Translations under genes and position numbers: made by a program | Notes under the pieces: model-generated | Database searches by the model: none | Seen by the model: only the letters and a program-made list of their open reading frames with translations | Told to the model about the DNA's origin: nothing | Shown: one piece after another, positions 86 to 62,868 of the stretch | How the letters are laid out: the number at the start of each line of letters is the position of its first letter | How positions within the stretch are numbered: position 1 is the stretch's first letter | Assembly (NCBI GenBank): GCA_049695115.1 | Contig: JBAVRP010000070.1 | Coordinates: 63 to 64,062 of the forward strand | Direction: 5' to 3' | Length of the DNA: 64,000 bases | From: Burkholderiales bacterium | GTDB lineage: Bacteria > Pseudomonadota > Gammaproteobacteria > Burkholderiales > JBEEJL01

Positions 86-992
86 CGTGCAAAATCCTTA
101 AACATAAATCTTCAAATGAAAGCCCGGCCTGCTTCGCCGCCATCGGCACCAAACTGTGACCGGTCATGCCGGGCGAGGTATTCATTTCCAAAAATGAAAA
201 TGTGCCGTCGGGGCGCAGCATCACATCCGCGCGGCCCCAGCCGCGACAGCCCAAGACCTGAAATGCTTTCAGCGCCGCCGCACGGATTTGCGTTTCCGTT
301 TCGGTGCGAACACCCGCAGGGCTGTAGTACTTCACCTCGTCGGTGAAATATTTATTCTGGTAATCGTATTTGCCTTCCGGCGCTTCAATGCGCACCAGCG
401 GCAAGGTATCGTCGCCGAGAATCGCGGCAGTCAATTCCTGCCCGGCAACGAATTCTTCCGCCAACACCAGTGAATCGAATTTCGCTGCGAGTCCATACGC
501 CGCTTGCAACTCGTTGGCTGTATTAACTTTGCTAATGCCGATACTCGAACCTTCGTGCGCCGGTTTGACCATCAACGGCAAGCCGAGCGTGTGCAAAACT
601 TTTTTCCAGTCCGAACTGGCGTCGAGCAACATACATTTCGGCGTCGGGATGCTGGTTGCTTGCCACACCAGTTTGGTGCGCCACTTGTCCATCGACAACG
701 CGGAGGCCATCACACCGCTGCCGGTATAAGGAATGCCCATCAACTCGAGCGCGCCTTGCACTGTGCCGTCTTCGCCAAGCCGGCCGTGCAGCGAAATCAT
801 CGCGCGTTGAAATCCTTCCCGCGGCAGATCAAAAATGCTGCGCAATTTCGGGTCGAACGCGTGCGCATCGACGCCTTTGGCTTGCAAGGCTTTCAATACT
901 GCGTTGCCGCTGAGCAAAGAAATCTCGCGCTCGGCGCTGGTGCCGCCTAGTAACACCGCTACTTTGCCGAAATTGTAATTATTTGATTTCAT
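69..992 (-). CDS. ddl: D-alanine--D-alanine ligase
   Basis: 307-aa ORF. N-terminus GKVAVLLGGTSAEREISLLSG and an ATP-grasp body (EEFVAGQELTAAIL, LEMNTSPGMT). It is the last mur-type gene of the dcw cluster. Confidence 0.95.
   Translation of the reverse strand: MKSNNYNFGKVAVLLGGTSAEREISLLSGNAVLKALQAKGVDAHAFDPKLRSIFDLPREGFQRAMISLHGRLGEDGTVQGALELMGIPYTGSGVMASALSMDKWRTKLVWQATSIPTPKCMLLDASSDWKKVLHTLGLPLMVKPAHEGSSIGISKVNTANELQAAYGLAAKFDSLVLAEEFVAGQELTAAILGDDTLPLVRIEAPEGKYDYQNKYFTDEVKYYSPAGVRTETETQIRAAALKAFQVLGCRGWGRADVMLRPDGTFSFLEMNTSPGMTGHSLVPMAAKQAGLSFEDLCLRILHDAALG
976..988 (-). repeat. AT-rich junction element, IHF-consensus core AATCAAATAATTA
   Basis: Spans the murB stop / ddl start. The surrounding 30-mer 973-1002 is 28/30 identical to 52141-52170. 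Confidence 0.8.
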
Positions 993-1927
993 TGAATATT
1001 TTTACCAATAATTCTTACTTCACGAATCAGGTTTACACCTTGTTTTGCCAGCACTTGCGCTTGTACGTGATCGATTACTTGTTCGATGTCTGCTGCCGTC
1101 GCATCGCTGATATTCACAATAAAATTCGCATGCATGCGTGATACTTCTGCGCCGCCGATGCGAAAACCTTTCAGGCCGCAGGCTTCGATCAAGTGCGCCG
1201 CGTGATCCCCGATCGGGTTGCGGAACACCGAGCCGGCATTCGGCTCGCTTATCGGTTGAGTCGCGATGCGTTTGGTCAACAGCTCTTTGATTTTCAGTTT
1301 GGCGATTTCACCGTCGCCTGCGGGCAACACCAAGCTTGTGCTGACAAACCATTCCTCATTTTTCTCGCGCAACTCAACGTGTCGATAACTGATATCGAAA
1401 TCTTTTGGCGTGCGCTGACGAATCACGCCTTGGAGATCTATGGTTTTCACGCCCTCGACTATTTGCCAGGTGTCCCAGCCATAACAACCCGCATTCATCG
1501 CCAATGCGCCGCCCATGGTGCCGGGAATGCCGGCGAGAAATTCTGCGTTGGCTAAATCATGCCGCGCGGCGAAGCGCGCAACCTTCGGTGCGGCGACGCC
1601 GGCTTCGACTTCAATGTGGGTCGGGTCGGCAAGGCGGATTTGATCCAATACGGCGTGAGTGAATATCACCGTCGCATTGACGCCACCGTCGCGCACCAGG
1701 AGGTTGCTGCCAAGGCCGACAAAATAAATTTCTTCGTGGGCTTCGCGCGTGCGCAAAAATATTGCGAGATCGTCAAGGTCAGCCGGAATATAAGCGCGTA
1801 CTGCGTGGCCGCCCGCGCGCCAGCTCACGTGCCTTGCCATCGGCTCATGCAAGCGCAATTCGCCGCGCAGCGTATGGGCTTGCGCTGTTTTATCCGGCGG
1901 AAATTTTTTCGTTTCGCTCATAAGCAT
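989..1927 (-). CDS. murB: UDP-N-acetylenolpyruvoylglucosamine reductase
   Basis: The ORF track gives 989..1963. I prefer the ATG at 1927 (MLMSETKK), 7 nt after the murC stop. FAD-binding MurB motifs are present (GLGSNLLVRDGG, AGIPGTMGGALAMNAGCYG). The stop overlaps the ddl start (4-nt overlap). Confidence 0.92.
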   Translation of the reverse strand: MLMSETKKFPPDKTAQAHTLRGELRLHEPMARHVSWRAGGHAVRAYIPADLDDLAIFLRTREAHEEIYFVGLGSNLLVRDGGVNATVIFTHAVLDQIRLADPTHIEVEAGVAAPKVARFAARHDLANAEFLAGIPGTMGGALAMNAGCYGWDTWQIVEGVKTIDLQGVIRQRTPKDFDISYRHVELREKNEEWFVSTSLVLPAGDGEIAKLKIKELLTKRIATQPISEPNAGSVFRNPIGDHAAHLIEACGLKGFRIGGAEVSRMHANFIVNISDATAADIEQVIDHVQAQVLAKQGVNLIREVRIIGKNIQ

Positions 1928-1934
1928 TCTTGTT

Positions 1935-5777: not shown

Positions 5778-7171
5778 AAACGCGCTCCCGTCGCCACTTT
5801 GGGTTTAAGCGAGAGCACGGCTTGAATGAACATTTCAGCGCGCTGAACATAATTGCGGAACATATCGAAACTGGCGCAGGCGGGTGACAGCAACACCGCG
5901 TCGCCGGGCTGCGCGGCGGCGAAACTTTTATTCACTGCATCGGGCATATCGCTGGCCCGCGACAGCGGCACGCCGCTGGTTTTCAGCGCAGCGGCTATGA
6001 GTTCGGCATCGCGGCCGATAAGCACGACTGCGCGGGCGTGGTTTTTAACCGGTTCGTTCAGCGGTGTAAAATCCTGCCCCTTGCCGTCGCCGCCGGCGAT
6101 CAACACCACAGGTTGTGACATACCGTTCAACGCCGCGACGGTTGCACCGACGTTAGTACCTTTGGAGTCATCGTAGAAAATAACGTCGCTGATCCGCGCG
6201 ACTTCTTGCACGCGATGGGGCAAACCTTTGAAATTTTTCAGCGCGGCGATAAGAGGCGCAGGTGCCAAATTGATCGCGCGACACAACGCCAAAGCAGCTA
6301 ATGCGTTCACTGCGTTGTGTAAGCCGTTTATATGTAACTCATTGATTATAATTAATTTTTTATATCCTTGATAAAGGCCTTTAATGCCTTCAACTTCGCT
6401 GATGCCGAATTCATTTTCATTTTTCGCTTTGTCTAATCCGAAAGTCACAGCGCGCTGTGTGCTCACCCGCATGCTCATGGTCAGCGCGTCATCGCGATTC
6501 AAAACTTGCGTGGTGCAATGGCGAAAAATCCGCGCTTTCGCCATCGCATAGTCGGCGATGTCGGCGTAGCGATCCATGTGATCCTGGCTGATGTTGAGTA
6601 CAGTGGCAGCATCGATTTTCAAATTAGCTGTGGTTTCCAATTGAAAGCTCGATAGTTCCAACACGTAAACATCGGGCTGGCCGCTCACTTCCGCTTCCAT
6701 TAGCGCATCGAGCACCGGCAAGCCGATGTTGCCTGCAACCACGGTTTTCAAACTCGCGGCTTGGCACATTTCGCCGACCAAAGTAGTGACGGTCGTTTTG
6801 CCATTGCTGCCGGTGATAGCGAGGACTTTTGGCCGCGCCGCCAATGCATTCAGTGCTTGTGCGAACAATTCTACGTCGCCGACTACCGGCACTTTAGCGG
6901 CAATGGCTTTTGCCAACAGCGGTTCGGAAAGCGGTACACCGGGGCTGATGGCGATGAGGTCAATACCAGTGAAACTGGAGGCTTTAAACGGGCCGGTGTC
7001 GAGCGGGGTCGAAGGGACAAGCTTGCCCAGCTCGCGCGCCAGCGGCGGATTGTCGCGCGAGTCGGCGACGCGCACATGCGCGCCGCGCGCATACAACCAG
7101 CGTGCCATCGACAGGCCGGTGTCGCCGAGACCCAACACTAACACGCGTTTATTTTTCAGTTCCAATGTCAT
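5774..7171 (-). CDS. murD: UDP-N-acetylmuramoylalanine--D-glutamate ligase
   Basis: 465 aa. [11 protein letters not shown]-terminus, [11 protein letters not shown]-loop, [15 protein letters not shown] overlaps with mraY (7171) and ftsW (5774-5777). Confidence 0.95.
6335..6347 (-). repeat. AT-rich element core AATCAATGAGTTA inside the murD coding sequence
   Basis: The 17-mer TATAATCAATGAGTTAC (6334-6350, minus) is identical to 46850-46866 (+). Confidence 0.75.
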
Positions 7172-9705: not shown

Positions 9706-11217
9706 TCAGTGGCCATATTTTTTTTGCAATGCTGCCGCTGCGTGTTGCACATCGCTGAACGGCGTTTTCACGCCAGCGATTTCCTGTGTTTCTTCGTGGC
9801 CTTTTCCGGCAATTAATAAAATATAATTTTTATCAATATAATCAATAGCTTGTGATATAGCGCTTGCTCGGTCAGATTGGATTTTTTTTTTCGCGTTACC
9901 CATTCCAGCGACGATTTGTTCCATGATCTGCGCAGGATTTTCGCTGCGCGGGTTATCGCTGGTGATAATGCTGATGTCGGCCAACTTCGCGCTGATTGCG
10001 CCCATTAATGGACGCTTGCCTTTGTCGCGATCGCCGCCGCAACCGAACAGGCAAACCAGCTGGCCGTTCGCAGGAACAATTTTGCGCAAAGTTAGTAAAA
10101 CTTTTTCCAGCGCGTCTGGCGTATGCGCGTAATCGACTACGACCAAAGGTTTATCGCCACCGCCGAGTTGTTGCAGGCGGCCGGGCGGCGCATCGAGTTG
10201 CGCCAGTGCGTGAATTGCGTCGCTGAACGAAACGCCCCCGGCGAGCAACACGCCCATTACGCCCAGCAGGTTCGATGCGTTGAATGCGCCGAGCAAGCGC
10301 GATTTCAAACGGCCATTACCCCAGCGCGAGGTAATATCAAGTTCCATGCCGTTAAGCGTCAAGGACAAATGGCTGCCACAAATGTCCCCTAGCTTGAGAC
10401 TGTAGGTAATGACTTCAAGATTTTCACTTTTGAGCTCCTGCACTAGCCGTGCGCCATATTCGTCGTCGATATTGACCACGGCAGTTTTCAGCTGCGGCAT
10501 GTGGAATAGCCTATGTTTGGCTTTTGCGTAGCTTTCCATATCGCCGTGATAATCCAGATGGTCGCGCGTGAGGTTGGTAAACAGCGCGACGTCGAATTTC
10601 ACCCCGTTCACGCGTCCCTGTTCAAGGCCGTGGCTGGAAGCTTCCATTGCTACGTGAGTTGCGCCTTGTTGCAAAAAATCTCTCAACATCGCTTGAAGGC
10701 CGATAGCTTCAGGTGTGGTGTGTGTCGCTTCAGTCAGTTGTTGCGCGCTACCGGCCAATCCATTACCGACCGTGCCGATGACAGCAGATTTTTTACCCAG
10801 GAACGAAAACGCGCTGGCGATCCAATGGCTGCAAGAAGTTTTGCCGTTAGTGCCGGTGACTCCAGCGACCCATAATTTTTGCGACGGATTGCCATACACA
10901 TGGCTGGCGATGCTGCCGATGTATTGCTGCAAATTGGCGATGCCGAGATTGGGCACTTGCCAATGTGCGGGCCAGGAAAAATTGTCTGAGTCCCACAACA
11001 CCGCCTTTGCGCCGCGTGAAATCGCGTCGGCAATATAGTTGCGGCCATCCACCGCTTCGCCGCGGAAGGCTGCGAAAGTCATGCCTTGAGTTACTGTGCG
11101 GCTATCGGCGGTGAGCGAACTGATACCCACGCCTAACTTATGCAGCTTGCTGATATCAAACGGCGATGGCGTACTAGTTTTCAAGCGCAGCGCCCTGTGG
11201 ATAATGGCGGCATTCAC
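9706..11217 (-). CDS. murE: UDP-N-acetylmuramoyl-L-alanyl-D-glutamate--2,6-diaminopimelate ligase
   Basis: 503 aa. VTGTNGKTS P-loop, and DNPR motif (SDNPRSENP) typical of meso-DAP-adding MurE. Confidence 0.95.
   Translation of the reverse strand: MNAAIIHRALRLKTSTPSPFDISKLHKLGVGISSLTADSRTVTQGMTFAAFRGEAVDGRNYIADAISRGAKAVLWDSDNFSWPAHWQVPNLGIANLQQYIGSIASHVYGNPSQKLWVAGVTGTNGKTSCSHWIASAFSFLGKKSAVIGTVGNGLAGSAQQLTEATHTTPEAIGLQAMLRDFLQQGATHVAMEASSHGLEQGRVNGVKFDVALFTNLTRDHLDYHGDMESYAKAKHRLFHMPQLKTAVVNIDDEYGARLVQELKSENLEVITYSLKLGDICGSHLSLTLNGMELDITSRWGNGRLKSRLLGAFNASNLLGVMGVLLAGGVSFSDAIHALAQLDAPPGRLQQLGGGDKPLVVVDYAHTPDALEKVLLTLRKIVPANGQLVCLFGCGGDRDKGKRPLMGAISAKLADISIITSDNPRSENPAQIMEQIVAGMGNAKKKIQSDRASAISQAIDYIDKNYILLIAGKGHEETQEIAGVKTPFSDVQHAAAALQKKYGH
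9840..9852 (+). repeat. AT-rich element core AATCAATAGCTTG inside murE (antisense)
   Basis: Preceded by the exact 11-mer AATATAATCAA (9835-9845). Confidence 0.7.
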
Positions 11218-17889: not shown

Positions 17890-18196
17890 TTTTTCTCTGT
17901 TGCATAAAATTTTTCAGATTAAACATAATTTTACGTTGTACAGGTGCTTTTGTATAGAGTATAGGAGTAGTGGTGGGGTGTAGAAAATGGGGAAAAGTAC
18001 TGTAACTTTACAAATTAAGTACATTATCCGTTCGCGTAATGCAAAAGGTCGGTTAACTTGAAAAGACACGTAAAATCAAAATATTACAAATATTCCTGGG
18101 AATGCAATTACTGCTATGGCAAACAGATACTTTTCAGCAATTTGGAAAGATTTTAATTTTATCACTTCCGTAAGCCGCTGATTTTAGGAAATACTG

Positions 18197-18209
18197 TAAC
18201 TAATTGATT
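18197..18209 (-). repeat. AT-rich element core AATCAATTAGTTA
   Basis: Lies in the AT-rich intergenic region upstream of the SxtJ-like gene. The core is identical to 43111-43123. Confidence 0.7.
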
Positions 18210-18278
18210 ATTATAAATAAAATTATTAAGGTTTGACTATCTATTTAGATAAAGTAGAGCTATAAAGAATAGAGAGTA

Positions 18279-19037: not shown

Positions 19038-20066
19038 TTATGCCAACAATTTCCAATTCACAGACTCGCTGGCACGCATTGGAACCAGTGTGTTGTCGCC
19101 GAATTTTATTTCGTCTGCCACCTTCAACGTAGTTTTTTCCAGCGTAATTTTTTCCGTATTGCGCGGCAGTTTATAAAAATCCGCGCCGAAAAAACTGGCG
19201 AAGCCTTCCAGTTTATCGAGGGCGTTGGCTTGTTCAAATACTTCGGCATACAATTCTATGCCTGCATGTGACGTGTAAAGTCCCGCACAGCCGCAGGCGT
19301 TTTCTTTGGTGTGTTTGGCGTGCGGCGCGCTGTCGGTGCCGAGAAAAAATTTTGGGTTGCCGCTGGCCGCTGCTTTCACCAACGCAAGCCGATGGCTTTC
19401 ACGCTTGAGTATCGGCAGGCAATAATTATGCGGGCGGATGCCGCCCTGGAAAATGGCGTTGCGGTTGAGCAATAAATGATGCGCGGTAATCGTGGCGGCA
19501 ATATTTTTCCCGGCGGCGAGTACGTAATCGACTGCGTGCGAGGTGGTGATGTGTTCCAGCACAATTCTCAGTGCGGGGAATTTATTCGCCAACGGTACAA
19601 GAATCGTCTCGATAAAAACTTTTTCCCGGTCGAATACATCGACATTTGCATCCGTCACTTCGCCATGAAGCAACAAGGGCATATCGTGCCGGTGCATGGC
19701 TTCAAGCACGGCGTAAGTTTTTTCCAGCGCCGTCACGCCGGAATCGGAGTTGGTAGTCGCGCCGGCCGGATAATATTTCACCGCATGGATAAATCCGCTG
19801 GCCTTGGCTTTGGCAATTTCCGACGGCATCATATTGTCGGTTAAATACAAAGTCATCAGCGGTTCAAACTTCATGCCTTTGGGAATCGCATCGATAATCC
19901 GCCGCCGATATTCCGCCGCCGCTTCCACCGTGGTAATCGGCGGTTTCAGATTGGGCATGATGATGGCGCGGGCGAAACGTTTTGCCGTATCGGGCAACAC
20001 ATCGCGCATCAGTTCGCCATCGCGCAGGTGTAGATGCCAGTCATCGGGGCGTGTAATTGTTATCAT
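19038..20066 (-). CDS. pyrC: dihydroorotase, homodimeric type (class II)
   Basis: The ORF track starts at 20189. I prefer the ATG at 20066 ([17 protein letters not shown]), the canonical class II PyrC N-terminus. Later motifs are also present ([22 protein letters not shown]). Confidence 0.93.
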
Positions 20067-20078
20067 AATTATTTGATT
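20066..20078 (-). repeat. AT-rich junction element core AATCAAATAATTA
   Basis: Fills the 23-bp hslO/pyrC spacer and touches the pyrC start codon. The core is identical to 976-988. Confidence 0.8.
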
Positions 20079-20089
20079 ATATTGAGTTT

Positions 20090-20962
20090 TTAGTGTTTTA
20101 TCGGCGGTGCGGGTGTAATCGCATCGCTGGCAAATAATTGTTCGGCGTCTACTGCGTCGAACTGATATTGCCGATTGCAAAACTGGCAAGTGACTTCCAC
20201 TTTACCTTCCTGTTTCAATGTCGCGGTGACTTCATCGCGTCCGATCATACGCAGCATACCGACTACGCGCTCGCGCGAGCAAGTGCAACGAAAACTGACG
20301 GCAATCGGTTCGAACAAACGCACATCTTCTTCATGATACAAGAGATGCAGAATTTTTTCCGGTGGCAATAATAGTTCAGCGGATTTTACCGTGGAGGCGA
20401 GATGCACGGCGCGGTTCCACGCATCGACATCCATTTCCAGTTCGCCCGGCAACTTTTGTAACAACAGCCCCGCCGCTTGATTGTTTGCCGTGGTGAGCCA
20501 CAAGCGCGTGGCAAGCTGTTCGGAAGTTTCCATATAATGCTGCAACGTTTCTGCCACTGTCTCGCCGGTTAGTTCCACAATGCCCTGGTACGTCTGGCGG
20601 CTGTCCTTCGGATCGATGGTAATGACAAAGCGCCCGCTGCCGGTGAGTTCGCGCAAACTGGTCAGTCCATCAAGCGAAGCTTCGTCCCATTGCGCCATCG
20701 CGCGCAACGTGAGATCGGAATTGCATTCGACAACCAGCAGTTTTACAGCGCCGTCTCCCTGGATTTGCATAATCAGACTGCCGTCGAATTTAAGCGTGGT
20801 GGCAAGCAGTGCGACCGACGCCATCAATTCGCCCAGGATATTTTTTATCGATGGCGGATAATGGTGGCGTTCCAGAACGGCCTGCCAGGTCGCGCCGAGT
20901 TGCACAATACTGCCGCGGATGTGCGCGTGTTCGAAAATAAATTTTTGCAAAGAATCAGCCAT
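20090..20962 (-). CDS. hslO: redox-regulated chaperone Hsp33
   Basis: 290 aa. The C-terminal zinc centre is CTCSRE...CQFCN. Confidence 0.93.
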
Positions 20963-22282: not shown

Positions 22283-22900
<618 letters not shown>

Positions 22901-34269: not shown

Positions 34270-34288
34270 AATATCAATAAAAACAATA

Positions 34289-37064: not shown

Positions 37065-37076
37065 ATAATTTAATAT

Positions 37077-37089: not shown

Positions 37090-37093
37090 CAAT

Positions 37094-40663: not shown

Positions 40664-40822
40664 CAGGCGAGGCGGGGAACCGGGGTTAAAGTGAGGGGTT
40701 GGGCGAATTGGACCCCATAAGTGTCGCTCCTAGTTGAGGGTTAAATTCGCCACACTACATCAAAAGGCGCGATCTGTATTATCATTACATATGCGGACCC
40801 ACTGCCAAGCAAAATGCCAATG

Positions 40823-40835
40823 AATCAAATCGTTA
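40823..40835 (+). repeat. AT-rich element core AATCAAATCGTTA in the integron attI region
   Basis: CAATGAATCAAATCGTTACAGT. It overlaps the candidate Pc -35 box. Confidence 0.65.
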
Positions 40836-40860
40836 CAGTGAAACGACAAGTTTCTAGAAT
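40833..40860 (+). promoter_or_regulatory. candidate cassette promoter (Pc-like)
   Basis: TTACAG, 16 nt, TAGAAT, reading toward the cassette and 36 nt upstream of the attI core. Sequence inspection only. Confidence 0.3.
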
Positions 40861-43084: not shown

Positions 43085-43110
43085 CGTAGAATCCTTAAAT
43101 ATATTAATAT

Positions 43111-43123
43111 AATCAATTAGTTA
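43111..43123 (+). repeat. AT-rich junction element core AATCAATTAGTTA
   Basis: Lies in the 41-bp bioC/PCu(A)C spacer. Confidence 0.8.
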
Positions 43124-43125
43124 TA

Positions 43126-44004
43126 TTATTTTAAGCTTTGAAAGCTTTTATTGCGGCGAAACTCGATGACTTGTCTGCCGTCTTGCGTGAGCTTTTGTTG
43201 TTCGCCTTTCCACGCGTGGCCATAAACGATTTCATAAGTAGCGGGCAGTTTACCATCGGCGCGAAACCCTTCGTACCGGTGAGTAACGTTTGTGAGGTGA
43301 TTCTGGTTTGCAGCGTGACGTAACATTTCCGGCAGCAGGTTTTCCTCACCCGTGCGATGCAAATCCTGCAACAGATCATCCACCTTGGCATAAGTCAGCG
43401 TCAGGGTTTCCATGTCCATGACCGGCGCGGTGAATCCGTTATGCGACAACACATCGCCGACATCATGCATGTCGATCAGGCGTTTCATATTTGCATCGCC
43501 ACTGGCGGCGCGCAATTCTTTCAATGTGTCCGGCCCGAGCAGGCTGAACATCACCAGCCCGCCGGATTTCAATACCCGTTGCGCTTCCTTGAATGCTGTA
43601 TCGGGATCGTGATGATGCAGGGCAAGATTGGACCAAATCATGTCGACGCTGGCGGCGCGTAGCGGCAAACGGGTGAAATCGCTGCAAGCGCATTGAGTCG
43701 CTGATTTTTCCAACCCCAGCCAGCGTTTCCATTTTGCAATCGGCGGAAAAGCTTGCGACAAAATTTGCGGCTGTGTTTCCAGCGCAATAATCGACGCAGC
43801 CGGATAATGTTGTTGCAACAAACCCGTGCCGAAGCCGGTGCCGGCGCCAACGTCGATGATGAGCCTGGGCGCGTGTTTCAGATAAGCCAGACGTTCGGAC
43901 ATGCGTTGGGCGACTTCGCGCTGCAATACTGTGGCTTCGTTGTACGCGGCCGCAGAAAGAATATTTATTTGAAGGGAGGGCGGACGGAAAGGCTTATCTG
44001 GCAT
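43126..44004 (-). CDS. bioC: malonyl-ACP O-methyltransferase BioC-like SAM methyltransferase
   Basis: 292 aa. SAM motif IIDVGAGTGFGT. The N-terminal region is typical of BioC (Y.E.A.LQREVA.RM.ERL). Close to bioB. Confidence 0.72.
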   Translation of the reverse strand: MPDKPFRPPSLQINILSAAAYNEATVLQREVAQRMSERLAYLKHAPRLIIDVGAGTGFGTGLLQQHYPAASIIALETQPQILSQAFPPIAKWKRWLGLEKSATQCACSDFTRLPLRAASVDMIWSNLALHHHDPDTAFKEAQRVLKSGGLVMFSLLGPDTLKELRAASGDANMKRLIDMHDVGDVLSHNGFTAPVMDMETLTLTYAKVDDLLQDLHRTGEENLLPEMLRHAANQNHLTNVTHRYEGFRADGKLPATYEIVYGHAWKGEQQKLTQDGRQVIEFRRNKSFQSLK

Positions 44005-46134: not shown

Positions 46135-46854
46135 ATGTCAATTTCAGCCGCTATCAGCCGCATATTCAATAAGTCAAAAATCGCCTTGCCGCAGGATTGT
46201 CTTTTGTGCGCGGCGCGGGCCCACGTGCAGCCCCTGTGCGAAGCGTGCGAGCAGGCATTGCCTTATCATGACGCACCCGCATGCCCACAGTGCGCGCTTG
46301 CTACCACTGCCGCCCGCGTATGCGGTGAGTGTCTGCGCCACCCACCGGTATTTGATGCGACATTGGCAGCGTTCGACTATCGCTTTCCCGTCGATATCCT
46401 GGTGCATCAGATCAAATACCATAGCAATCTCGCACTGGTCAATTTCGTCGCTAACAGTTTATTGCGCAAACTGCGCAATGCTGAGAAGCCGGTTCTGATT
46501 CTGGCGATGCCCTTGCACAGCGCACGGTTGCAACAGCGCGGATTTAATCAATCGGCGGAAATTGCCAAGCAGTTAACGCGACTATGGAGCGTGCCGTTGC
46601 AATTGGACGGCTACCAGCGCATCCGCCATACCGAGGAGCAAGCTGGCTTGCCGTGGAAAGAACGTCACGCCAATGTGCGCGGCGCGTTCTCCTGCGATCT
46701 TGATTTGCGCGGTAAACATGTGGCAGTGATTGATGATGTCATGACCACCGGCGCGACGCTGAACGAATTTGCCAGCACGCTCAAAAAATCCGGCGCGGAA
46801 AAAATATCTGCCTATGTAGTAGCCAGAACGTTAAAAAAAGAATTTTCAATATAA
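46135..46854 (+). CDS. comF: ComF family protein (phosphoribosyltransferase-like)
   Basis: 239 aa. N-terminal Cys pairs (CLLC...CEAC, CPQC...CGEC) and PRTase motif VAVIDDVMTTGATL. Confidence 0.85.
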   Translation: MSISAAISRIFNKSKIALPQDCLLCAARAHVQPLCEACEQALPYHDAPACPQCALATTAARVCGECLRHPPVFDATLAAFDYRFPVDILVHQIKYHSNLALVNFVANSLLRKLRNAEKPVLILAMPLHSARLQQRGFNQSAEIAKQLTRLWSVPLQLDGYQRIRHTEEQAGLPWKERHANVRGAFSCDLDLRGKHVAVIDDVMTTGATLNEFASTLKKSGAEKISAYVVARTLKKEFSI

Positions 46855-46865
46855 TCAATGAGTTA
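46853..46865 (+). repeat. AT-rich junction element core AATCAATGAGTTA
   Basis: Fills the 3-bp comF/trmL gap. The trmL ATG (46858-60) lies inside the core. Confidence 0.8.
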
Positions 46866-47325
46866 CGATTTAGTCCTCTATCAGCCGGAAATCCCCGGCA
46901 ACACCGGCAACATCATCCGTCTGTGCGCCAACACCGGCGTAGGTTTGCATTTAGTGAAACCGTTAGGATTCGACCTCGAAGACAAACAAATGAAACGCGC
47001 CGGCTTGGATTACCGCGAATACGCCGATTTGGAATTGCATGAAGATTGGCCGGCATGTGTCGCGTATTTTTCGGGTAGAAGAATGTTCGCCGTCACCACC
47101 AAAGGTGCGACGCGTTACAGCGATGTGCAATTCAAAATCGATGACGTGTTTGTGCTCGGGCCGGAAACGCGCGGATTACCGCCGGAAATTATCCAGAGTT
47201 TTCCGCCGGAGCAACGCTTGCGTATGCCCATGCAAGCGCAAAGCCGCAGCCTGAATTTATCCAATACCGCTGCGGTCTTGGTTTATGAGGCATGGCGGCA
47301 AATAAAATTTAGCGGCGGCGTCTAA
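46858..47325 (+). CDS. trmL: tRNA (cytidine/uridine34-2'-O)-methyltransferase
   Basis: 155 aa. SPOUT motifs EIPGNTGNIIRLCANTG and LNLSNTAAVLVYEAWRQ. Confidence 0.92.
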   Translation: MSYDLVLYQPEIPGNTGNIIRLCANTGVGLHLVKPLGFDLEDKQMKRAGLDYREYADLELHEDWPACVAYFSGRRMFAVTTKGATRYSDVQFKIDDVFVLGPETRGLPPEIIQSFPPEQRLRMPMQAQSRSLNLSNTAAVLVYEAWRQIKFSGGV

Positions 47326-49291: not shown

Positions 49292-49301
49292 GATATTTAC
49301 C

Positions 49302-49314
49302 TAAGTTGTTGATT
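49302..49314 (-). repeat. AT-rich junction element core AATCAACAACTTA
   Basis: Lies in the 42-bp grxC/secB spacer. The 15-mer TTGATTATAATTAAT (49309-23) is identical to 6343-6357. Confidence 0.8.
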
Positions 49315-49333
49315 ATAATTAATAATTTATGAA

Positions 49334-50901: not shown

Positions 50902-52139
50902 TTTTCGTTCAGAGCGCACTCATTTTTCTTATTACGGCTCTTGTGTTGGCAGCCTCGCCCGCCGAAGCCGCGCGCAAAAAACCCCCGCCGAGCGAAGAAC
51001 TCAAAGCCTTGCGCGGGCGCATCAACGAGCTGCAAAAAGACATCGCCAAAAAAGAAAGTTCCAAGTCCGAAGTAGCCGACGATTTGCGCGAGTCGGAAAA
51101 AGAAATTTCCGAAACCAATCGCACTTTATCCGAACTGGCGCTGGAGCTAAAGGAGGCATCAGGCGAACTCGTCGCGCTGCAAGCCAAAACCGGCACGCTC
51201 AAAACCAATGTAGCCAAGCATCAGGCGGACCTGGAAAAAGTCATCAAGAGCCAGTATCAATCCGGCAGCGATGACGCGCTGAAATTATTACTCAACGGGA
51301 AAGACCCGGCGCAAGTGTCGCGCCATATGCACTACTACTCGTATCTCGCTAAAGCGCGCGCTGAATCCATTCAGGGTTTAAAATCCGATATTGCCCAGTT
51401 GAAGCTGGCGGAAAACGACACTCGCGCCACGGCAAAAGAGCTGGCAGATTTGCAAGCGGAAGAAGCGCGGCAAAAAACGAAACTGCTCACCGAGCGGCAA
51501 AAACGCAAAAACCTGCTGGATAAAATCTCCGGCCAGATCAAAACGCAAAAACGCGAAGTCGGTAAATTGAAACAGGATGAGGCGCGAATAACGCAGCTGG
51601 TCGAGCGCTTGGCGAAAATGCTGGCGCAGAAAAAGAAAAAGCCCGCCAAGTCTGCCGCTAAACCGCCTGCACCGGACAACGCCAAACCCGGGGCGCCCGT
51701 TATTCAAAACGACGAAGAACCAGATGATAGTTTCAGGGGAACTACGTTCGCATCATTGCGCGGAAAATTAAAGTTACCGGTAAGGGGGGAACTAGCCAGC
51801 CGCTACGGCAGTCCACGAGAGGGTGGGGGTCTTACCTGGAAAGGCCTATTTATCCGCGCCGCCGAAGGGGCCGCAGTCAAAGCCGTTGCTGAGGGGCGTG
51901 TAGTGTATGCAGATTGGTTGCGCGGCTTCGGCAATTTGATGATACTGGATCATGGCGGCGGCTATATGAGCCTCTATGGAAACAACGAATCCCTGCTGAA
52001 ACATTTGGGCACCAACATCAAGCCCGGCGACACGATAGCCAGCGTGGGAAACAGCGGCGGCAATCCGGAATCGGGCTTATACTTTGAAATAAGGCATCAA
52101 GGCAAAACCCTCGACCCATTACCTTGGGCCGGGCGTTAG
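50898..52139 (+). CDS. envC: murein hydrolase activator EnvC-like (coiled coil plus M23/LytM domain)
   Basis: The 512-aa ORF-track frame overlaps gpmA for 300 nt. I start it at GTG 50898 (GTGA overlap with the gpmA stop), which gives a signal peptide [25 protein letters not shown] long coiled coil precedes the C-terminal M23 fold ([46 protein letters not shown]). Confidence 0.85.
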
Positions 52140-52143
52140 TTTG

Positions 52144-52156
52144 TAATTAGTTGATT
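52144..52156 (-). repeat. AT-rich junction element core AATCAACTAATTA
   Basis: Lies in the 40-bp envC/S41 peptidase spacer. Confidence 0.8.
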
Positions 52157-52179
52157 TTATTGAATATTTTGGAGCAGCT

Positions 52180-53643
52180 ATGAGCGGGAAAAACGGCAAT
52201 AAATGGAAACAGGCCAGTCTGATCGGCATTGGCTTAGTGGTAGGCGTGTCCCTCAGCTTGAATTTCACCGCCAGCGCGGAGCGTCGCTCGCCGCTGTTGC
52301 CGCTGCCTTATGAAGACATGCGTGTGTTCAGCGATGTGTTCAACCGCATCAAAACCGATTACGTCGAGCCGGTGGAAGACAAAAAACTGCTCAAAGAAGC
52401 CATCAATGGCATGCTCGCTGGATTGGATCCGCACTCCGCTTATCTTGACAAGGACGCCTACAAAAACCTGAACGAAAGCATGGAAGGCCAGTTCGAAGGC
52501 CTCGGCATACAAGTGGACATGGACGAGACCGGCTTCGTCAAAGTGGTGTCGCCGATTGAAGGCACGCCCGCAGCGCGCGCCGGCATCAAGCCCGGCGATT
52601 ACATTATCAAACTCGACGACACCGCCGTCAAAGGACTCAAGCTCGACGAGGCGGTGAAAAAAATGCGCGGCCCGCGCGGCACCAGCATCACACTGACGGT
52701 GATGCGTAAAACGGAACCCAAGCCGCTGATCATCACGCTCACGCGCGAACCCATCCGCACGCAAAGCGTGATTTCCAAACAAATCGAGCCCGGCTTCGCG
52801 CACATCCGCGTGACGCAATTCCAAAAACCTACCGGCCCTGATCTCGCTGCTGCATTAGAAGACGCGTACAAAAAAAATCCTGGCGGCTTAAAAGGTTTAG
52901 TGTTGGATTTACGTAATGATCCGGGCGGTTTATTGCCGACCGCAATCGGTGTGTCCGCAGCTTTCTTGCCGGAGAATGCCTTGGTTGTCACTTCCGACGG
53001 ACAAGTGGACGACGCCAAAGCCAAATATTTAGCCAACCGCAAATATTATCAGCCGGGTTTCGCCAACGATTACCTCAGTCGCATTCCAGCTGCGGTGAAA
53101 ACCGTGCCGATGGTGGTGTTGGTGAATAACGGCTCGGCGTCTGCCTCGGAAATTGTCGCCGGCGCGTTGCAGGACCACAAGCGCGCTGTGGTGATTGGTA
53201 CGCAAACTTTCGGCAAAGGCTCAGTGCAAACCATCGTGCCGCTGAATGACGAAACCGCCATCAAGCTCACCACCGCGCGTTACTTCACGCCGAATGGCCG
53301 CTCCATCCAAGCCAAAGGCATTACGCCGGATTATCTGGTAGAAGAAGCCAATCCCCGCATCGGCGCGATACGCGAAGCGGATCTTGAGCGTCACTTGAGC
53401 AATCCAGCCGATGGTAAAACTGATCCTGTTGCTGAAGCTGCCGCAAAAGCTATTCGTCTCGAGGCCGCCAAAATAGAGGCCGCGAAAGCTGACGCCGCTA
53501 AGGCAAAAGAAGTCGTAGAAAAAAACCCTGACGGAACCGACAAAGAAAAGCCTGATCTGCAATTGGAACAGGCGATGAATTATTTGAAAGGTCTGCCGGT
53601 GGTTGCCAGCAGCGTTGCGAAAACGAGTAGTTTGGTTAAATAA
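52180..53643 (+). CDS. S41 family carboxy-terminal processing peptidase
   Basis: 487 aa. PDZ domain (GIKPGDYIIKLD) and catalytic region (LDLRNDPGGLL, NNGSASASEIVAGALQD, GTQTFGKGSVQ). Confidence 0.93.
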   Translation: MSGKNGNKWKQASLIGIGLVVGVSLSLNFTASAERRSPLLPLPYEDMRVFSDVFNRIKTDYVEPVEDKKLLKEAINGMLAGLDPHSAYLDKDAYKNLNESMEGQFEGLGIQVDMDETGFVKVVSPIEGTPAARAGIKPGDYIIKLDDTAVKGLKLDEAVKKMRGPRGTSITLTVMRKTEPKPLIITLTREPIRTQSVISKQIEPGFAHIRVTQFQKPTGPDLAAALEDAYKKNPGGLKGLVLDLRNDPGGLLPTAIGVSAAFLPENALVVTSDGQVDDAKAKYLANRKYYQPGFANDYLSRIPAAVKTVPMVVLVNNGSASASEIVAGALQDHKRAVVIGTQTFGKGSVQTIVPLNDETAIKLTTARYFTPNGRSIQAKGITPDYLVEEANPRIGAIREADLERHLSNPADGKTDPVAEAAAKAIRLEAAKIEAAKADAAKAKEVVEKNPDGTDKEKPDLQLEQAMNYLKGLPVVASSVAKTSSLVK

Positions 53644-53674
53644 ATAGTTAATTAAATAAAATAGTTACATAGAG

Positions 53675-54934: not shown

Positions 54935-55060
54935 TTGACTATGGCGCTAACAGTCTTCATAACAAAATATATAACTATTTGATTGCATGGAATTTTTTTA
55001 ACGAAAAAATAATTCTTCATGCGACACAAGCCAAGCAACAATTTCTGTCAAAATAAAAAC

Positions 55061-57040: not shown

Positions 57041-57047
57041 GAAAATT

Positions 57048-58497: not shown

Positions 58498-58941
58498 ATG
58501 AGTCTGCGCGAACAAATTACTGAAGACATGAAATCCGCCATGCGCGCGAAGGAAACTGAGCGGCTGAACGCGATTCGCCTGCTGCTGGCTGCGCTGAAGC
58601 AAAAAGAAGTCGACGAGCGCGTGACTTTGAGCGACGCCGATGTGATTTCGATTATCGAAAAAATGCTCAAGCAAAGACGCGACTCCATTTCGCAATTTGA
58701 AGCGGCCAAGCGCCAGGATCTCGCTGACAAAGAAAAATTTGAAGTCAGCATACTCGAAGCTTACATGCCCAAAGCCATGAGCGAAGCAGAAGTGGCGGCG
58801 GCGATAGACGAAGCGATTAAATCTTCCGGTGCAGCGGGAATGAAAGACATGGCTAAAGTCATGGCGACGCTGAAACCGATTTTGGCTGGACGCTCAGATA
58901 TGGCGAAAGTGTCCGGTTTGATCAAAGCCAAGCTCAATTAA
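58498..58941 (+). CDS. GatB/YqeY domain-containing protein
   Basis: The ORF track starts at 58447. I prefer the ATG at 58498 (MSLREQITEDMKSAMRAKE), preceded by GACGGAG. It sits between rpsU and dnaG, as is common. Confidence 0.9.
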   Translation: MSLREQITEDMKSAMRAKETERLNAIRLLLAALKQKEVDERVTLSDADVISIIEKMLKQRRDSISQFEAAKRQDLADKEKFEVSILEAYMPKAMSEAEVAAAIDEAIKSSGAAGMKDMAKVMATLKPILAGRSDMAKVSGLIKAKLN

Positions 58942-58952
58942 AAATTAAATAT

Positions 58953-58965
58953 AATCAAATAGTTA
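58953..58965 (+). repeat. AT-rich junction element core AATCAAATAGTTA
   Basis: Lies in the yqeY/dnaG spacer, in the context ATTAAATATAATCAAATAGTTACAAT. Confidence 0.8.
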
Positions 58966-59026
58966 CAATTATAAATTATTCATTATTTTTACTCTCCGGG
59001 CAGCGGTACACTAACGCTTGCCGACT

Positions 59027-60787
59027 ATGATTCCCCAGGATTTTATTCAAACTCTGCTCGACCGCGTCGATATTGTCGATGTGGTCGAACGCTACGTGCC
59101 GCTGAAAAAAGCCGGCTCCAACCTTAAAGCCTGTTGCCCGTTTCACAACGAAAAATCGCCGTCGTTTAACGTCAGTCAGACCAAACAGTTCTATCACTGC
59201 TTCGGTTGCGGCGCCCACGGCACGGCGATTTCATTTTTGATGGAATACGCGGGCATGGGTTTTATCGAAGCGGTCAAAGATCTGGCCGACAGCGTCGGGA
59301 TGCAAATGCCGGCGCTGGAAATACGCCGCGACGCGAATCGCGGCGACGCAGCGCCGGGGGCGGGCGATTCCGGCAATATCCAACATCTGTACGAAACGCT
59401 ATATCGTGCCATGCAGTTTTACCGCGAAGAATTAAAGACAGCGCCGCATGCCATCGCGTATCTTAAACAGCGTGGATTATCGGGCGAAATCGCCGCGCGT
59501 TTCGGCATCGGCTACGCGCCCGCGGGCTGGCAGAATCTGGAAAAAATTTTTCCTGATTACCCATCGAAAAATTTAATCGATGCAGGCTTAGTCATTAAAA
59601 ACGAAGAGGGCAAACATTACGACCGTTTCCGCGATCGGGTGATGTTTCCGATTATCAATGCCAAGGGCAATATCATCGGCTTCGGCGGCCGCGTGTTGGA
59701 CAAGGGCGAGCCGAAATATCTCAATTCGCCAGAGACGCCGGTGTTTGACAAAGGGCGCGAGTTGTATGGCTTGTACCAAGCACGCAAATCCATACGCGAG
59801 AAAGGCCGCGTGATGGTGGTCGAAGGTTATATGGACGTAGTCGCGCTGGCGCAACACGGCGTCGAATACACCGTCGCCACGCTCGGCACAGCGACTACGC
59901 CCACGCATATCCAGAAATTATTACGCACGACGCAGAATGTGGTGTTTTGTTTCGACGGCGACAAAGCCGGGCGCGCGGCGGCGTGGCGCGCGCTTGAAGT
60001 GGCGTTGCCGTACCTTACCGACGGCGCCAATGTGAGTTTTTTGTTTTTGCCGTCGGAACACGACCCGGACAGCTATGTGCGCGAATTCGGCCGTGAGGCG
60101 TTGGAGAAATTATTGGCTGATGCCCCGTCGTTGTCCACTTACATGCTGCGTGAACTGACTGCCCAAGTGGATTTGAAAAATGAAGAGGGCCGTGCGCGTT
60201 TGCTGCAACACGCCAAGCCCTTGATAAGCCAAATCACCGCCCCGACATTAAGCTTACTGCTGCGAAATCGACTAACGGCATTAACCGGCGTGAGTCGTGC
60301 GGAAATCGATTCGTTGTTTCAATTGCAGCCTATCCGCGAGGAACGGCAAAGGGGCCCGGCCAAAGCGCCGCGCAACGCGCCGTCACTCGAAGGAAAAATG
60401 ATAGGCATGGTGCTGCATCATCCGCCGTTGGCGCATGAATTCGGCGGTGAAGCGAACTACGGCGTGACGCCGGAAGCCAAAACCCTGGCTGAATTAGTGC
60501 GCATAATCGTCGAAAAAAGACCGCAAAAGTCGGGGAATGTAATGGAATATTTTCGCGACACCCCCTATGAAAAGATATTGCAGGAGCGGGCGGCTGAAGG
60601 TTTGAAGCAAGCGGAAAATTTTTCCGCAAACGAATTGGAGCAGGAATTCCGGGGAGCTTTGGCTCAATTGCGCGAACTGAATCGCAAATATGAAATAAAT
60701 GATTTGTTGAAAAAATCCCAACGTGAAGCATTAAGCGAAAGCGATAAAGCGCGCTACCTCGAATTAACCAAGCAGCATAATAGTTAA
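59027..60787 (+). CDS. dnaG: DNA primase
   Basis: The ORF track starts at TTG 59018. I prefer the ATG at 59027 (MIPQDFIQTLLDRVDIVDVV). Zinc ribbon CCPFHNEKSPSF...YHCFGCGAHG and TOPRIM domain (VVEGYMDVV, FDGDKAG). Confidence 0.96.
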   Translation: MIPQDFIQTLLDRVDIVDVVERYVPLKKAGSNLKACCPFHNEKSPSFNVSQTKQFYHCFGCGAHGTAISFLMEYAGMGFIEAVKDLADSVGMQMPALEIRRDANRGDAAPGAGDSGNIQHLYETLYRAMQFYREELKTAPHAIAYLKQRGLSGEIAARFGIGYAPAGWQNLEKIFPDYPSKNLIDAGLVIKNEEGKHYDRFRDRVMFPIINAKGNIIGFGGRVLDKGEPKYLNSPETPVFDKGRELYGLYQARKSIREKGRVMVVEGYMDVVALAQHGVEYTVATLGTATTPTHIQKLLRTTQNVVFCFDGDKAGRAAAWRALEVALPYLTDGANVSFLFLPSEHDPDSYVREFGREALEKLLADAPSLSTYMLRELTAQVDLKNEEGRARLLQHAKPLISQITAPTLSLLLRNRLTALTGVSRAEIDSLFQLQPIREERQRGPAKAPRNAPSLEGKMIGMVLHHPPLAHEFGGEANYGVTPEAKTLAELVRIIVEKRPQKSGNVMEYFRDTPYEKILQERAAEGLKQAENFSANELEQEFRGALAQLRELNRKYEINDLLKKSQREALSESDKARYLELTKQHNS

Positions 60788-60797
60788 TATATTGATT
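60785..60797 (-). repeat. AT-rich junction element core AATCAATATATTA
   Basis: Overlaps the dnaG stop codon. Confidence 0.7.
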
Positions 60798-60957
60798 ACA
60801 TTGATTTTTTTATTAAAACGAAGTACAATCTTTTAAAATAATATTTATCTGTTTTCGGGCGTTCGCATAACAAAACGCAGCTTAAGTAGTCTAAAGTTCT
60901 GATATACTTAACGGCTTTTTTCAACGCCTTTTTCACTCAGTTTTCACTGGAACCGAC

Positions 60958-62832
60958 ATGGCTCACGAAAAACCCGAACGCATTATTCCCGACGTCGAAG
61001 CGCAACGCCTGAAGCTCAAAAACCTGATTGTGATGGGTAAGGAGCGCGGCTTTCTGACTTACGCCGAAATCAATGATTCACTGCCGGACGAAATGCTCGA
61101 CGCCGAGCAAATCGAAGGCATTATCAGCATGATCGGCGACATGGGCATCATGGTGTATGACATTGCGCCGGATGCCGAAACGCTGTTGATGACCGAAGCG
61201 GCGCCCCCGGTCGCCGATGAAGACGCTGTAGAAGAAGCTGAGGCCGCGCTGTCGACGGTGGATTCCGATTTTGGCCGCACCACCGACCCCGTGCGTATGT
61301 ATATGCGCGAAATGGGCACGGTGGATTTGCTCACGCGCGAAGGCGAAATTGAAATCGCCAAGCGTATCGAGGACGGCTTGAAACACATGATTTACGCCAT
61401 CTCGTCCTGCCCTACGACGATTGCCGAAATTCTGACTAAAGCGGAAATGGTCGAGCGCGACGAAATGCGCATCGACGAGCTCGTCGATGGTTTGATTGAT
61501 CCGAACGAAGAAGAAGTCGTCGAAACGGAAATAGAAGCCGCCGAAGAGGAAGAAGAGCTCGAAGAGGAAGAGATTGACGAGGATGAAGACGGCGCCATTG
61601 CCAGCGCCAATCTGGAAATCCTCAAGCAGGGCGCGCTGGTGCGTTTCGCGCACATACGCAAGCTGTATAAAAAAATGCGCAAAGGGCTGGCGGAAAAAGG
61701 TTCGCGCAGCCGTGCGTACAAAGATTTGCAGGAAGAAATTTCCAACGAACTTATGTGGATTCGTTTTTCCGCCAAGCAAGTCGAAGCGCTGTGCAGCAGC
61801 TTGCGCAGGCTGGTGGATAATGTGCGCCTGCAGGAACGCCAGATCATGGAGCTATGCGTCACCAGTTCCGGCATGCCGCGCTCCCACTTCATCAAATCCT
61901 TCCCCGGCAATGAAGTGAACCTGAAATGGGTGAACGACGAAATCGCCCATGGCAAGGGCTATTCTGCGGCCCTCACGCGCTATAAGCACGCTATTGTCGA
62001 GCGGCAGGATAATTTGCTCAACATCCAAAAAGATGTTGGCCTGCCGATTAAAGACCTGAAAGAAATTTCGCGCCAGCTCAGTACTGGCGAAGCCAAGGCG
62101 AGGCGCGCCAAGCGCGAGATGATCGAGGCCAACCTGCGCCTGGTGATTTCGATCGCAAAAAAATATACCAACCGTGGTTTGCAATTCCTCGATTTGATAC
62201 AGGAAGGCAACATCGGCCTGATGAAAGCCGTGGATAAATTCGAATACCGTCGCGGTTACAAATTTTCGACCTATGCGACCTGGTGGATACGCCAGGCGAT
62301 TACGCGTTCCATCGCCGATCAAGCCCGCACCATTCGCATTCCGGTGCACATGATCGAAACGATTAACAAAATGAATCGCATTTCGCGCCAGATTTTGCAG
62401 GAAACCGGACAAGAACCAGACGCCGCAACATTGGCTGTGAAAATGGAAATGCCGGAAGAAAAAATCCGCAAAATACTGAAAATTTCCAAAGAGCCGATTT
62501 CCATGGAAACGCCGATCGGCGACGACGACGATTCGCATTTAGGCGATTTCATCGAAGACTTGGCGACCTTGGCGCCGTCGGATTCCGCCATTTTCGCCAG
62601 CCTGCGCGAAGCGACCAAAGAAGTATTGGATTCGCTCACGCCGCGCGAAGCGAAAGTGTTGCGCATGCGTTTCGGTATCGAAATGAACACCGACCACACG
62701 CTGGAAGAAGTCGGCAAGCAGTTCGATGTCACACGCGAGCGTATTCGTCAAATTGAAGCCAAGGCCTTGCGCAAATTGCGTCATCCCACACGCTCGGAAA
62801 GATTGCGTAGTTTTCTCGATAACGAGGCTTGA
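60958..62832 (+). CDS. rpoD: RNA polymerase sigma factor RpoD (sigma-70)
   Basis: 624 aa. Acidic region 1.1 and spacer. Regions 2-4 are present ([88 protein letters not shown]). Confidence 0.97.
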
Positions 62833-62855
62833 GGCTCGATGTAACAACTAAATAG

Positions 62856-62868
62856 TAAATAGTTGATT
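62856..62868 (-). repeat. AT-rich junction element core AATCAACTATTTA
   Basis: Lies 24 nt after the rpoD stop. Confidence 0.7.

Follow-up and report, generated by a model that had tools for sequence, protein, structure and literature searches.

The window analysed here, a stretch of 64,000 nucleotides from contig JBAVRP010000070.1, is a betaproteobacterial contig with a GC content of ~52%. It carries the dcw cluster, hslO-pyrC, argJ, comF-trmL, grxC-secB, envC-ctp, and rpsU-yqeY-dnaG-rpoD. Scattered among these genes is a short, AT-rich repeated element built around the hexamer AATCAA, which has the layout of a binding site for integration host factor (IHF). It was first noticed in a first-pass annotation made from the sequence of the window, which listed 16 core sites and suggested an architectural site, a DNA uptake signal, or a tiny insertion-prone element. 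The family is real and represents a clade-specific, positionally conserved, DNA-level element of 35 bp.

The core pattern WATCAANNNNTTR has 20 matches on the two strands of the window, compared with 3.26 ± 1.89 (maximum 9) in dinucleotide shuffles of the window, a control proposed in the first-pass annotation. A recount with this pattern found all 16 core coordinates listed there to be correct, although the tally was incomplete, with the good copies 18074(+) and 54972(-) overlooked. The AT-only 11-mer AATATAATCAA recurs at exactly the eight positions reported for it where 0.01 occurrences are expected by chance, and ranks as the top 10-mer and 11-mer of the window. The near-identity of 973–1002 and 52141–52170 likewise holds at 28 of 30 positions. 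The family comprises 18 of the 20 pattern matches and a further 3–5 degenerate copies. Two matches, 17871(+) and 60214(-), were rejected as members as they read TATCAA...TTG and the shared flanks are missing. The match at 60214(-) lies inside dnaG, recurs in relatives, and looks like conserved coding sequence.

A position weight matrix (PWM) was built over positions -16 to +19, with position 0 being the first A of AATCAA. It finds 20 sites above 25 bits in the window, including the degenerate 24416(+), 28048(+), and 53655(+), the first of which (26.2 bits) is the degenerate copy already noted at 24411–24433. Weaker sites lie at 17921(+), 34323(+), and 57855(-). When the window is shuffled within 60-bp blocks, which preserves local AT-richness, 1.9 hits above 15 bits remain (maximum 6) against 29 observed, overlapping secondary hits included. 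The enrichment is therefore not a by-product of AT-rich spacers.

Across 19 aligned copies, information rises above background from -16 to +19, i.e. over ~35 bp, with nothing conserved outside. The consensus is ww-AAAAAA-tTcAATAT-AATCAA-wtAg-TTA-caattt. The core AATCAA is invariant in all 19 copies, and 4 bp 3' of it stands TTA in 17 and TTG in one. Upstream, the A tract has the consensus AAAAAA at -14 to -9 and is 100% A/T at -12 to -10. An A occupies -5 in 16 and -4 in 13 of the 19, forming an AA step 9 bp upstream of the AA within ATCAA. Almost all positions are at least 80% A/T, the exceptions being -6, +3, +9, and +13; the C at -6, +3, and +13 each opens a CAA, resulting in three CAA motifs spaced 9–10 bp apart. 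When degenerate copies are counted as well, giving 21, WATCAA is present in 19, TTR in 19, AA at -5/-4 in 13 (the rest mostly AT), and an A run of at least four in 11. Several copies that do not have such a run have a T tract or mixed A/T instead.

The copies display no secondary structure, as most fold with a minimum free energy of 0, the mean z-score against shuffles is +0.24, and no hairpin is seen. No inverted or terminal repeats were found at the copies, and direct repeats flanking them, sought as target-site duplications, are no longer than in controls (3.39 nt vs. 3.25 nt). An Rfam scan of the window returned nothing at the element copies, with RNase P RNA and tRNAs the only hits. The bacterial RNase P RNA lies at 14992–15302 (-) and a four-tRNA cluster directly follows rpoD at 62921–63805 (+); the open reading frames (ORFs) 15038–15415 and 63025–63444 overlap these RNAs and are spurious.

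Copies in the window are given below with their PWM scores. Orthologous copies are named by locus and position and come from clade relatives, which are uncultured, share 71–85% protein identity with the window, and were found by protein searches. Their contigs were fetched, giving six loci (including L081, L084, L085, L167, L168, and L169). Metagenome-assembled genomes of the clade include GCA_043744215.1 and GCA_049698095.1 as well as JGI bins, and its members are present in the JGI samples 3300080919, 3300080920, and 3300081914.

969..1004 (-): murB/ddl junction, 43.8 bits; sense to both genes, with the murB stop and the ddl ATG (ATGA overlap) inside the element; orthologues at L167 20229+ and, decayed (AAACAA), at L168 20085+.
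6328..6363 (-): intragenic in murD, sense strand, 43.7 bits; without indel compared to relatives.
9824..9859 (+): intragenic in murE, antisense strand, 31.9 bits; QAIDYIDKNY is encoded on the gene strand.
18058..18093 (+): intergenic region 17890–18369 between divergent genes, a weaker copy, 27.9 bits; points to the gene at 18370.
18190..18225 (-): second copy in the divergent region 17890–18369, 39.0 bits; points to the SxtJ-like gene 17479–17889; counterpart at L168 5943+, in the corresponding region upstream of mraZ.
20059..20094 (-): fills the hslO/pyrC spacer, 39.4 bits; the A tract contains the hslO stop, and TTA is directly adjacent to the pyrC ATG; orthologue at L168 2264+ with ATTCAA.
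22899..22934 (-): diaA/BON-lipoprotein junction, 39.6 bits; antisense to both genes, the first ten codons of the BON lipoprotein (MHKLLIILSI) being the antisense of the copy.
24400..24435 (+): degenerate copy (TTA to ATA) in the photolyase gene, in the linker between two domains, 26.2 bits.
28032..28067 (+): degenerate copy (AAACAA...ATA), 29.9 bits; overlaps the DUF3833 gene (27550–28074, minus strand) at its start, just below the end of the MFS gene (28093).
34250..34285 (-): divergent region directly upstream of the B12-binding MerR-type regulator gene (33286–34251), 28.6 bits.
37061..37096 (+): fills the argJ/DUF815 spacer, 39.7 bits; the argJ stop lies in the 5' flank and the ATG 4 nt after TTA.
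40807..40842 (+): divergent region between an xerC/D-like recombinase gene and the gene at 40914, a weaker copy, 22.6 bits.
43095..43130 (+): between the bioC-like methyltransferase and PCuAC genes, antisense to both, 44.1 bits; sits between the stop codon and the Shine-Dalgarno.
46837..46872 (+): comF/trmL junction, 42.8 bits; the element includes the comF stop, which is the TAA of TATAAT, and the trmL ATG, which falls in the 4 bp between core and TTR (N4).
49295..49330 (-): sense copy in the grxC/secB spacer, with the secB ATG 10 nt downstream, 36.7 bits; orthologue at L085 2539-.
52137..52172 (-): envC/ctp spacer, antisense to both genes, 38.9 bits; place and orientation kept in L081 1918-, L084 2067-, and L085 5414-.
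53639..53674 (+): degenerate copy (AATAAA) between the ctp stop and an SDR gene, 25.3 bits; degenerate orthologue at L081 3427+.
54965..55000 (-): upstream of the ThiF-family gene (55019), antisense, 40.8 bits; orthologues at L081 4870- and L084 5672-.
58937..58972 (+): best copy, yqeY/dnaG spacer, sense, 46.8 bits.
60778..60813 (-): end of dnaG, antisense, 36.2 bits; the element TTA is, on the gene strand, the dnaG TAA stop; present at L081 11770- and L084 11756-, not detected in L085.
62849..62884 (-): between the rpoD stop and a terminator hairpin plus the tRNA cluster, antisense to rpoD, 31.6 bits; orthologues at L081 13816- and L085 13822-.

A further, half-conserved intragenic copy at 57855–57867 (-), AATCAATGCTATA, has TTR changed to ATA and lies ~215 nt into tsaD, at the same place as in L081 (8817) and L085 (8722). 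The segment 23742–34251 contains only degenerate copies (24416, 28048). It has a lower GC content (0.48–0.52) and resembles a light or photo-oxidative-stress type cluster, with genes for a photolyase, an ECF sigma factor, SnoaL, SDR, DUF3833, MFS, chalcone-isomerase-like, CFA synthase, DUF1365, and amine oxidase proteins, and the B12-binding MerR-type regulator at its end.

Genomic setting and conservation across the clade

Approximately 80% of the copies lie at gene junctions, and most fill very short spacers, with a stop and a start codon 0–25 nt away. In spacers of less than 35 bp, the element runs into the ends of the genes. The placement described in the first-pass annotation is correct for the junctions, except that at least four copies fall within, or extend into, coding sequence (murD 6335, murE 9840, photolyase 24416, and the signal peptide of the BON lipoprotein, 22906). 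The mixed orientation relative to genes was also borne out, with ~11 copies pointing with the nearest downstream gene and at least five clearly antisense, either in pairs of co-directional genes or within a gene (9840, 22906, 43111, 52144, 60785). The genes next to copies are functionally unrelated housekeeping genes.

Sense copies that sit right before a start codon (pyrC 20056, trmL 46858, DUF815 37094, ddl 992) leave no recognisable Shine-Dalgarno, and translation at these starts presumably relies on coupling or on an unstructured AU-rich leader. Junctions with antisense copies (ctp, PCuAC) retain GGAG or AAGGA. Most copies hold a perfect TATAAT at a distance from the ATG which ranges from 2 to ~60 nt, with trmL starting 2 nt after it.

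The element occurs about once per 3 kb overall, with gaps from 34 kb onward mostly of 1.3–4 kb. Post hoc tests on this one window show 21 copies to be spaced more evenly than expected by chance, with a coefficient of variation (CV) of 0.60 versus 0.96 for uniform placement (P ~0.01), and more evenly than random gene junctions (P ~0.05).

PWM hits above 25 bits number 0.31 per kb for the window and 0.24 per kb across the six related loci, compared with none in 2.17 Mb of other beta- and gammaproteobacterial loci. GTDB species representatives include no close relative, the best DnaG identity to the window being 56%. The 80 loci from this DnaG scan served as a negative control only, and the motif is absent from all of them. 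A metagenome scan with MurE found only relatives of ≤55% identity, which were used as outgroups. The element is thus restricted to one clade.

Within this clade the element is found at the same junctions and in the same orientation. This applies to envC/ctp, the site upstream of thiF, yqeY/dnaG, the dnaG and rpoD stops, the site upstream of secB, murB/ddl, hslO/pyrC, and the copies inside murD and murE. Alignment of the yqeY/dnaG junction from four genomes shows element columns that are nearly invariant in a variable spacer. Over 39 orthologous pairs, for which there is some ascertainment bias as the copies were found with the motif itself, identity is highest in TTR (1.00) and WATCAA (0.94). 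It is lower in N4 (0.76), the A/T tract (0.72), positions -8 to -1 (0.69), and positions +13 to +19 (0.51). Individual positions outside the core, namely T-7, T-3, and A+8, are conserved between orthologues as strongly as the core.

One relative departs from this pattern. In L168 (GCA_049698095.1; locus GC 57%), copies are detectable at all five orthologous sites with their flanks retained, but four of them carry core substitutions (2264 ATTCAA, 11363 AATTAA, 14869 AATCAG, 20085 AAACAA) and only 5943+ is intact. This suggests relaxed constraint or a changed specificity in one lineage.

Mobile islands of the relatives contain no copies. These are an integrative conjugative element (ICE) in L081 and a type I restriction-modification (R-M) island in L167. 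The ICE lies downstream of rpoD at L081 14164–21556 and encodes TraG/TrwB and TraI, a tyrosine integrase, and a toxin-antitoxin pair of the PIN/Phd type.

Two further features were observed in the conserved region. The dnaG-rpoD spacer (60900–60957) contains a block upstream of rpoD, TAGTCTAAAGTTCTGATATACTTAACGGCTTTTTTCAACG, that all four genomes conserve; this block resembles a promoter or leader of rpoD and has no relation to the element. Between thiF and tsaD, gene content differs among relatives, and this segment holds ORF 55892–56359 (+), which has a third-position GC of 0.28 versus ~0.6 elsewhere and is probably recently acquired DNA.

The copies within murD and murE show how the element came to lie inside these genes. 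Both lie within a 17-kb operon that offers no spacers, both have no indels relative to relatives, and both use AT-ending codons, including TTA for Leu, that are kept across the clade. The murD codons AAA ATC AAT GAG TTA are retained in L167 and L169, with one substitution in L168. Similarly, the antisense orientation of the murE copy is kept in L167 and L169, and in L168 with one core substitution. The AT content of the murE segment is 79% in the window and 74–77% in clade relatives, whereas 80 outgroup MurE genes average 34%. The 13 aligned murE codons are gap-free against these 80 genes, and the A, R, and G-rich residues of the outgroup are replaced by I, D, Y, K, and N. The absence of indels together with the recoded AT-rich codons indicates that substitutions created the element within coding sequence that was already there, with altered amino acids as the price. 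Intragenic copies without an indel are decisive against insertion.

A candidate IHF-type site and its rivals

The canonical 34-bp IHF site has four elements, which are WATCAA, TTR 4 bp downstream, two base pairs, usually AA, 9 bp apart where prolines intercalate, and an A tract of 4–6 in the 5' half (PMC1874591; also 10.1101/382655). All four are found in register in the element, with the A tract at -14 to -9, AA at -5/-4, AA at +4/+5 within ATCAA, and TTA at +10 to +12. The extent of the element (~35 bp) also agrees with the size of an IHF site (~34 bp). The H' site of lambda, which we take to read AAAAAA-GCATTGCT-TATCAA-TTTG-TTG, has the identical spacing of A6-N8-WATCAA-N4-TTR. The IHF interpretation of the first-pass annotation, which was based on the core and an upstream A/T tract, is therefore supported at the sequence level, given the four elements in register and WATCAA/TTR as the most constrained parts.

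The most favoured explanation, to which we give about an even chance, is that the copies may constitute a clade-specific family of high-affinity sites for IHF or a close DNABII-type DNA-bending protein, with an architectural role and maintained at the DNA level. Such an IHF-type bending site is favoured by the orientation independence of the element, its placement where sequence constraint is lowest, its lack of RNA structure, and the strongest constraint falling on WATCAA and TTR. The occurrence of the element in either orientation, its preference for spacers, and the recoding inside spacer-less operons indicate that the maintained property is DNA-level and orientation-independent. We infer that the selected function may be binding and bending by IHF. 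The IHF heterodimer would wrap each site into a U-turn, for which the two AA steps 9 bp apart would be the proline-intercalation or kink positions. The architectural role may be in folding of the nucleoid, or as a barrier or punctuation for supercoiling between genes.

Several points weigh against this explanation. No IHF or HU gene (ihfA/ihfB) was found by tblastn in the window or in the six clade loci; ihfA and ihfB are assumed to lie elsewhere in the genome, as is general for Proteobacteria. All four elements are present under strict criteria in only six of the 21 copies. The tTcAATAT block (-8 to -1) and the tail caattt are conserved yet lie outside the IHF consensus. The lambda H' site, with the sequence given above, scores just 6.4 bits on the family PWM, with the A tract contributing +9.9 and the core +6.4 but the tTcAATAT block costing -12.9. 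This penalty indicates that something beyond generic IHF recognition shapes the family. The extra conserved block could reflect common descent, a lineage-specific preference of the clade IHF, or an overlapping second signal. The core substitutions in four of the five L168 copies also indicate that the element is dispensable, at least in that lineage. To our knowledge, no bacterium has such a lattice of IHF sites or essential genes recoded for one. Finally, the even spacing, recoded intragenic copies, and absence from islands fit DNA uptake signals as well.

An uptake or other molecular-drive signal is accordingly the strongest rival, although we consider it unlikely. The element would be a preferred uptake substrate, accumulating by biased uptake and recombination like the uptake signal sequence (USS) of Pasteurellaceae and the DNA uptake sequence (DUS) of Neisseriaceae, and it would look like an IHF site because a sequence that kinks easily and has a flanking A tract was selected. 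The strong over-representation, clade specificity, both orientations, and persistence at orthologous positions are all as expected of such a signal, as are the intragenic copies made by substitution with remodelling of the protein. The CV and the recently acquired L081 and L167 islands described above also agree with it, and the window contains a comF gene. With an extent of ~30–35 bp and A/T tracts, the element resembles the extended USS of Haemophilus. However, ~80% of the copies are confined to gene junctions, known uptake signals are ~3x denser than the ~0.3 per kb of the element, and the exact register of the four IHF elements would require coincidence or convergence. The known DUS and USS words are missing or nearly so, with 0–2 occurrences each in the window, and we know of no competence phenotype for this uncultured clade. 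A more specific form of this proposal, which we regard as rather unlikely, is that the element represents a third, previously unknown type of uptake or molecular-drive signal. This would be an all-AT kinkable 35-mer whose IHF likeness stems from sharp bending at the start of uptake, with the even spacing and the intrusion into essential genes resulting from biased uptake and recombination and not from selection for architecture.

The copies may instead be sites of another clade-specific DNA-binding protein, such as a different nucleoid-associated protein or a global regulator, with the IHF-like core only part of its recognition sequence. This would explain why tTcAATAT and the preferred N4 (wtAg) are not accounted for by the IHF consensus and why T-7, T-3, and A+8 are as conserved as the core, and confinement of the element to one clade is consistent with it. 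We nonetheless judge it quite unlikely, as all four IHF elements are in register, no candidate protein emerged, and the unrelated housekeeping functions of the neighbouring genes argue against a specific regulon. By-eye partial likenesses to an FNR box (TTGAT-N4-ATCAA vs. TTCAATATAATCAA), to the Ter core of E. coli (some copies, when reverse-complemented, contain TTGTAACTA), and to a Fur box and an H-NS nucleation motif were considered and dropped.

A role in expression is very unlikely. Here TATAAT would act as a -10 box, or the element would be an AU-rich mRNA leader or processing site that replaces the Shine-Dalgarno at tight junctions. The perfect TATAAT of most copies points this way, as do the sense copies without a Shine-Dalgarno before the pyrC, trmL, DUF815, and ddl starts and the unstructured nature of the element. 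As a promoter, though, it has no conserved -35 (~0.2 bits at -26 to -21). A sigma-70 scan of 43050–63000 called 21 sites versus 16.8 ± 4 expected, and called no element in its own TATAAT orientation. A canonical sigma-70 promoter was rejected for these reasons together with the incompatible distances to the ATG and the conserved antisense copies, and the range of 2 to ~60 nt is likewise too variable for leaderless mRNA. Moreover, at least five copies are antisense, with the orientation kept at envC/ctp in all three relatives and at murE in L167 and L169 (in L168 with the substitution noted above). Retention of the same sequence in both orientations disfavours any RNA-level signal.

It is highly improbable that the element is the relic or solo end of a miniature mobile element inserted at AT-rich junctions. 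Although the copies share sequence beyond the IHF consensus, as common descent predicts, sit at stop/start junctions rich in TAA and TTA, and mobile elements carrying IHF sites are known (PMC2229807), the evidence from the copies themselves is contrary. There are no inverted repeats or hairpins, flanking repeats match controls, the intragenic copies are indel-free against relatives and 80 outgroups, and positions are stable across the clade without clean presence/absence indels. The yqeY/dnaG spacer of 76–86 nt falls within the outgroup range (median ~80), a length comparison that is itself uninformative. Viral contigs yielded 90 single matches, consistent with chance, and no clusters, which counts against a mobile or phage origin. 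The tiny insertion-prone element suggested in the first-pass annotation is not supported by these observations, given the lack of target-site duplication and a yqeY/dnaG spacer no longer than in outgroups. Identity as a hairpin, REP, or MITE (miniature inverted-repeat transposable element) was rejected likewise, there being no palindromes, inverted repeats, target duplications, or indels.

As it intrudes even into essential genes, the element is probably not a promoter or mobile element but a maintained chromosome-folding signal. If IHF binds, it would be a natural case of chromosome architecture, in the form of regular U-turns, visibly under sequence selection, and the long-standing question of how specific IHF sites serve the nucleoid would become directly testable. 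If it is a drive-type signal, uptake-signal biology would reach past the two families in which such signals are known. In both cases, the element provides a practical marker motif for an uncultured lineage. It also calls for caution with gene callers, as stops, starts, and N- and C-terminal tails are built from it.

Comparison with known systems

No description of the element turned up in full-text literature searches, which used the motif strings and also targeted IHF-site repeats. It shares features with several known systems. One of these is the H'-type IHF site of lambda attP, which is also ~34–35 bp with an A tract of 4–6, AA/TT steps at a distance of 9 bp, and WATCAA followed 4 bp later by TTR. 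The Kd of E. coli IHF for lambda H' and H1 is picomolar (10.1101/382655). However, H' is a single site in a recombination complex, whereas ~20 near-identical copies are present here per 64 kb. The 8 bp between A tract and core, conserved here as tTcAATAT, are furthermore no requirement of IHF.

USS and DUS are also lineage-specific, over-represented asymmetric motifs in both orientations, with even spacing, orthologous sites that are kept, and coding copies made by substitution, and the extended USS has phased A/T tracts as well. The element differs from them in its core, which is entirely AT-rich, and in being ~3x sparser, biased to junctions, and equipped with the full IHF consensus.

The Correia elements of Neisseria (NEMIS/CREE) and QMITE of Coxiella (PMC5896051, PMC2229807) are, like the element, small dispersed repeats of (beta)proteobacterial genomes with an IHF consensus that often lie next to genes. 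MITEs of this type are 100–150 bp or more, with terminal inverted repeats, a TA target duplication, and presence/absence polymorphism. In contrast, the element is 35 bp, has none of these features, and is positionally stable.

The RIB/RIP repeats of E. coli (BIME-1) are likewise dispersed intergenic repeats with an IHF consensus, located for the most part between genes that belong to one transcription unit or to convergent ones, and considered architectural. In these, the IHF site sits between two inverted REP palindromes, which form GC-rich stem-loops, whereas the element has neither REP palindromes nor secondary structure. It is also far denser, overlaps stop and start codons, occurs inside genes, and is found in one uncultured betaproteobacterial clade only. 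The analogy to BIME/RIB elements made in the first-pass annotation is therefore at best a functional one, as the copies have neither REP palindromes nor secondary structure. The element would work like the RIB/RIP IHF-site repeats but belongs neither to them nor to any MITE family. Dispersed IHF-site repeats have been known only within larger elements, either REP/BIME or MITEs, whereas the repeat unit here is the complete IHF-type site alone.

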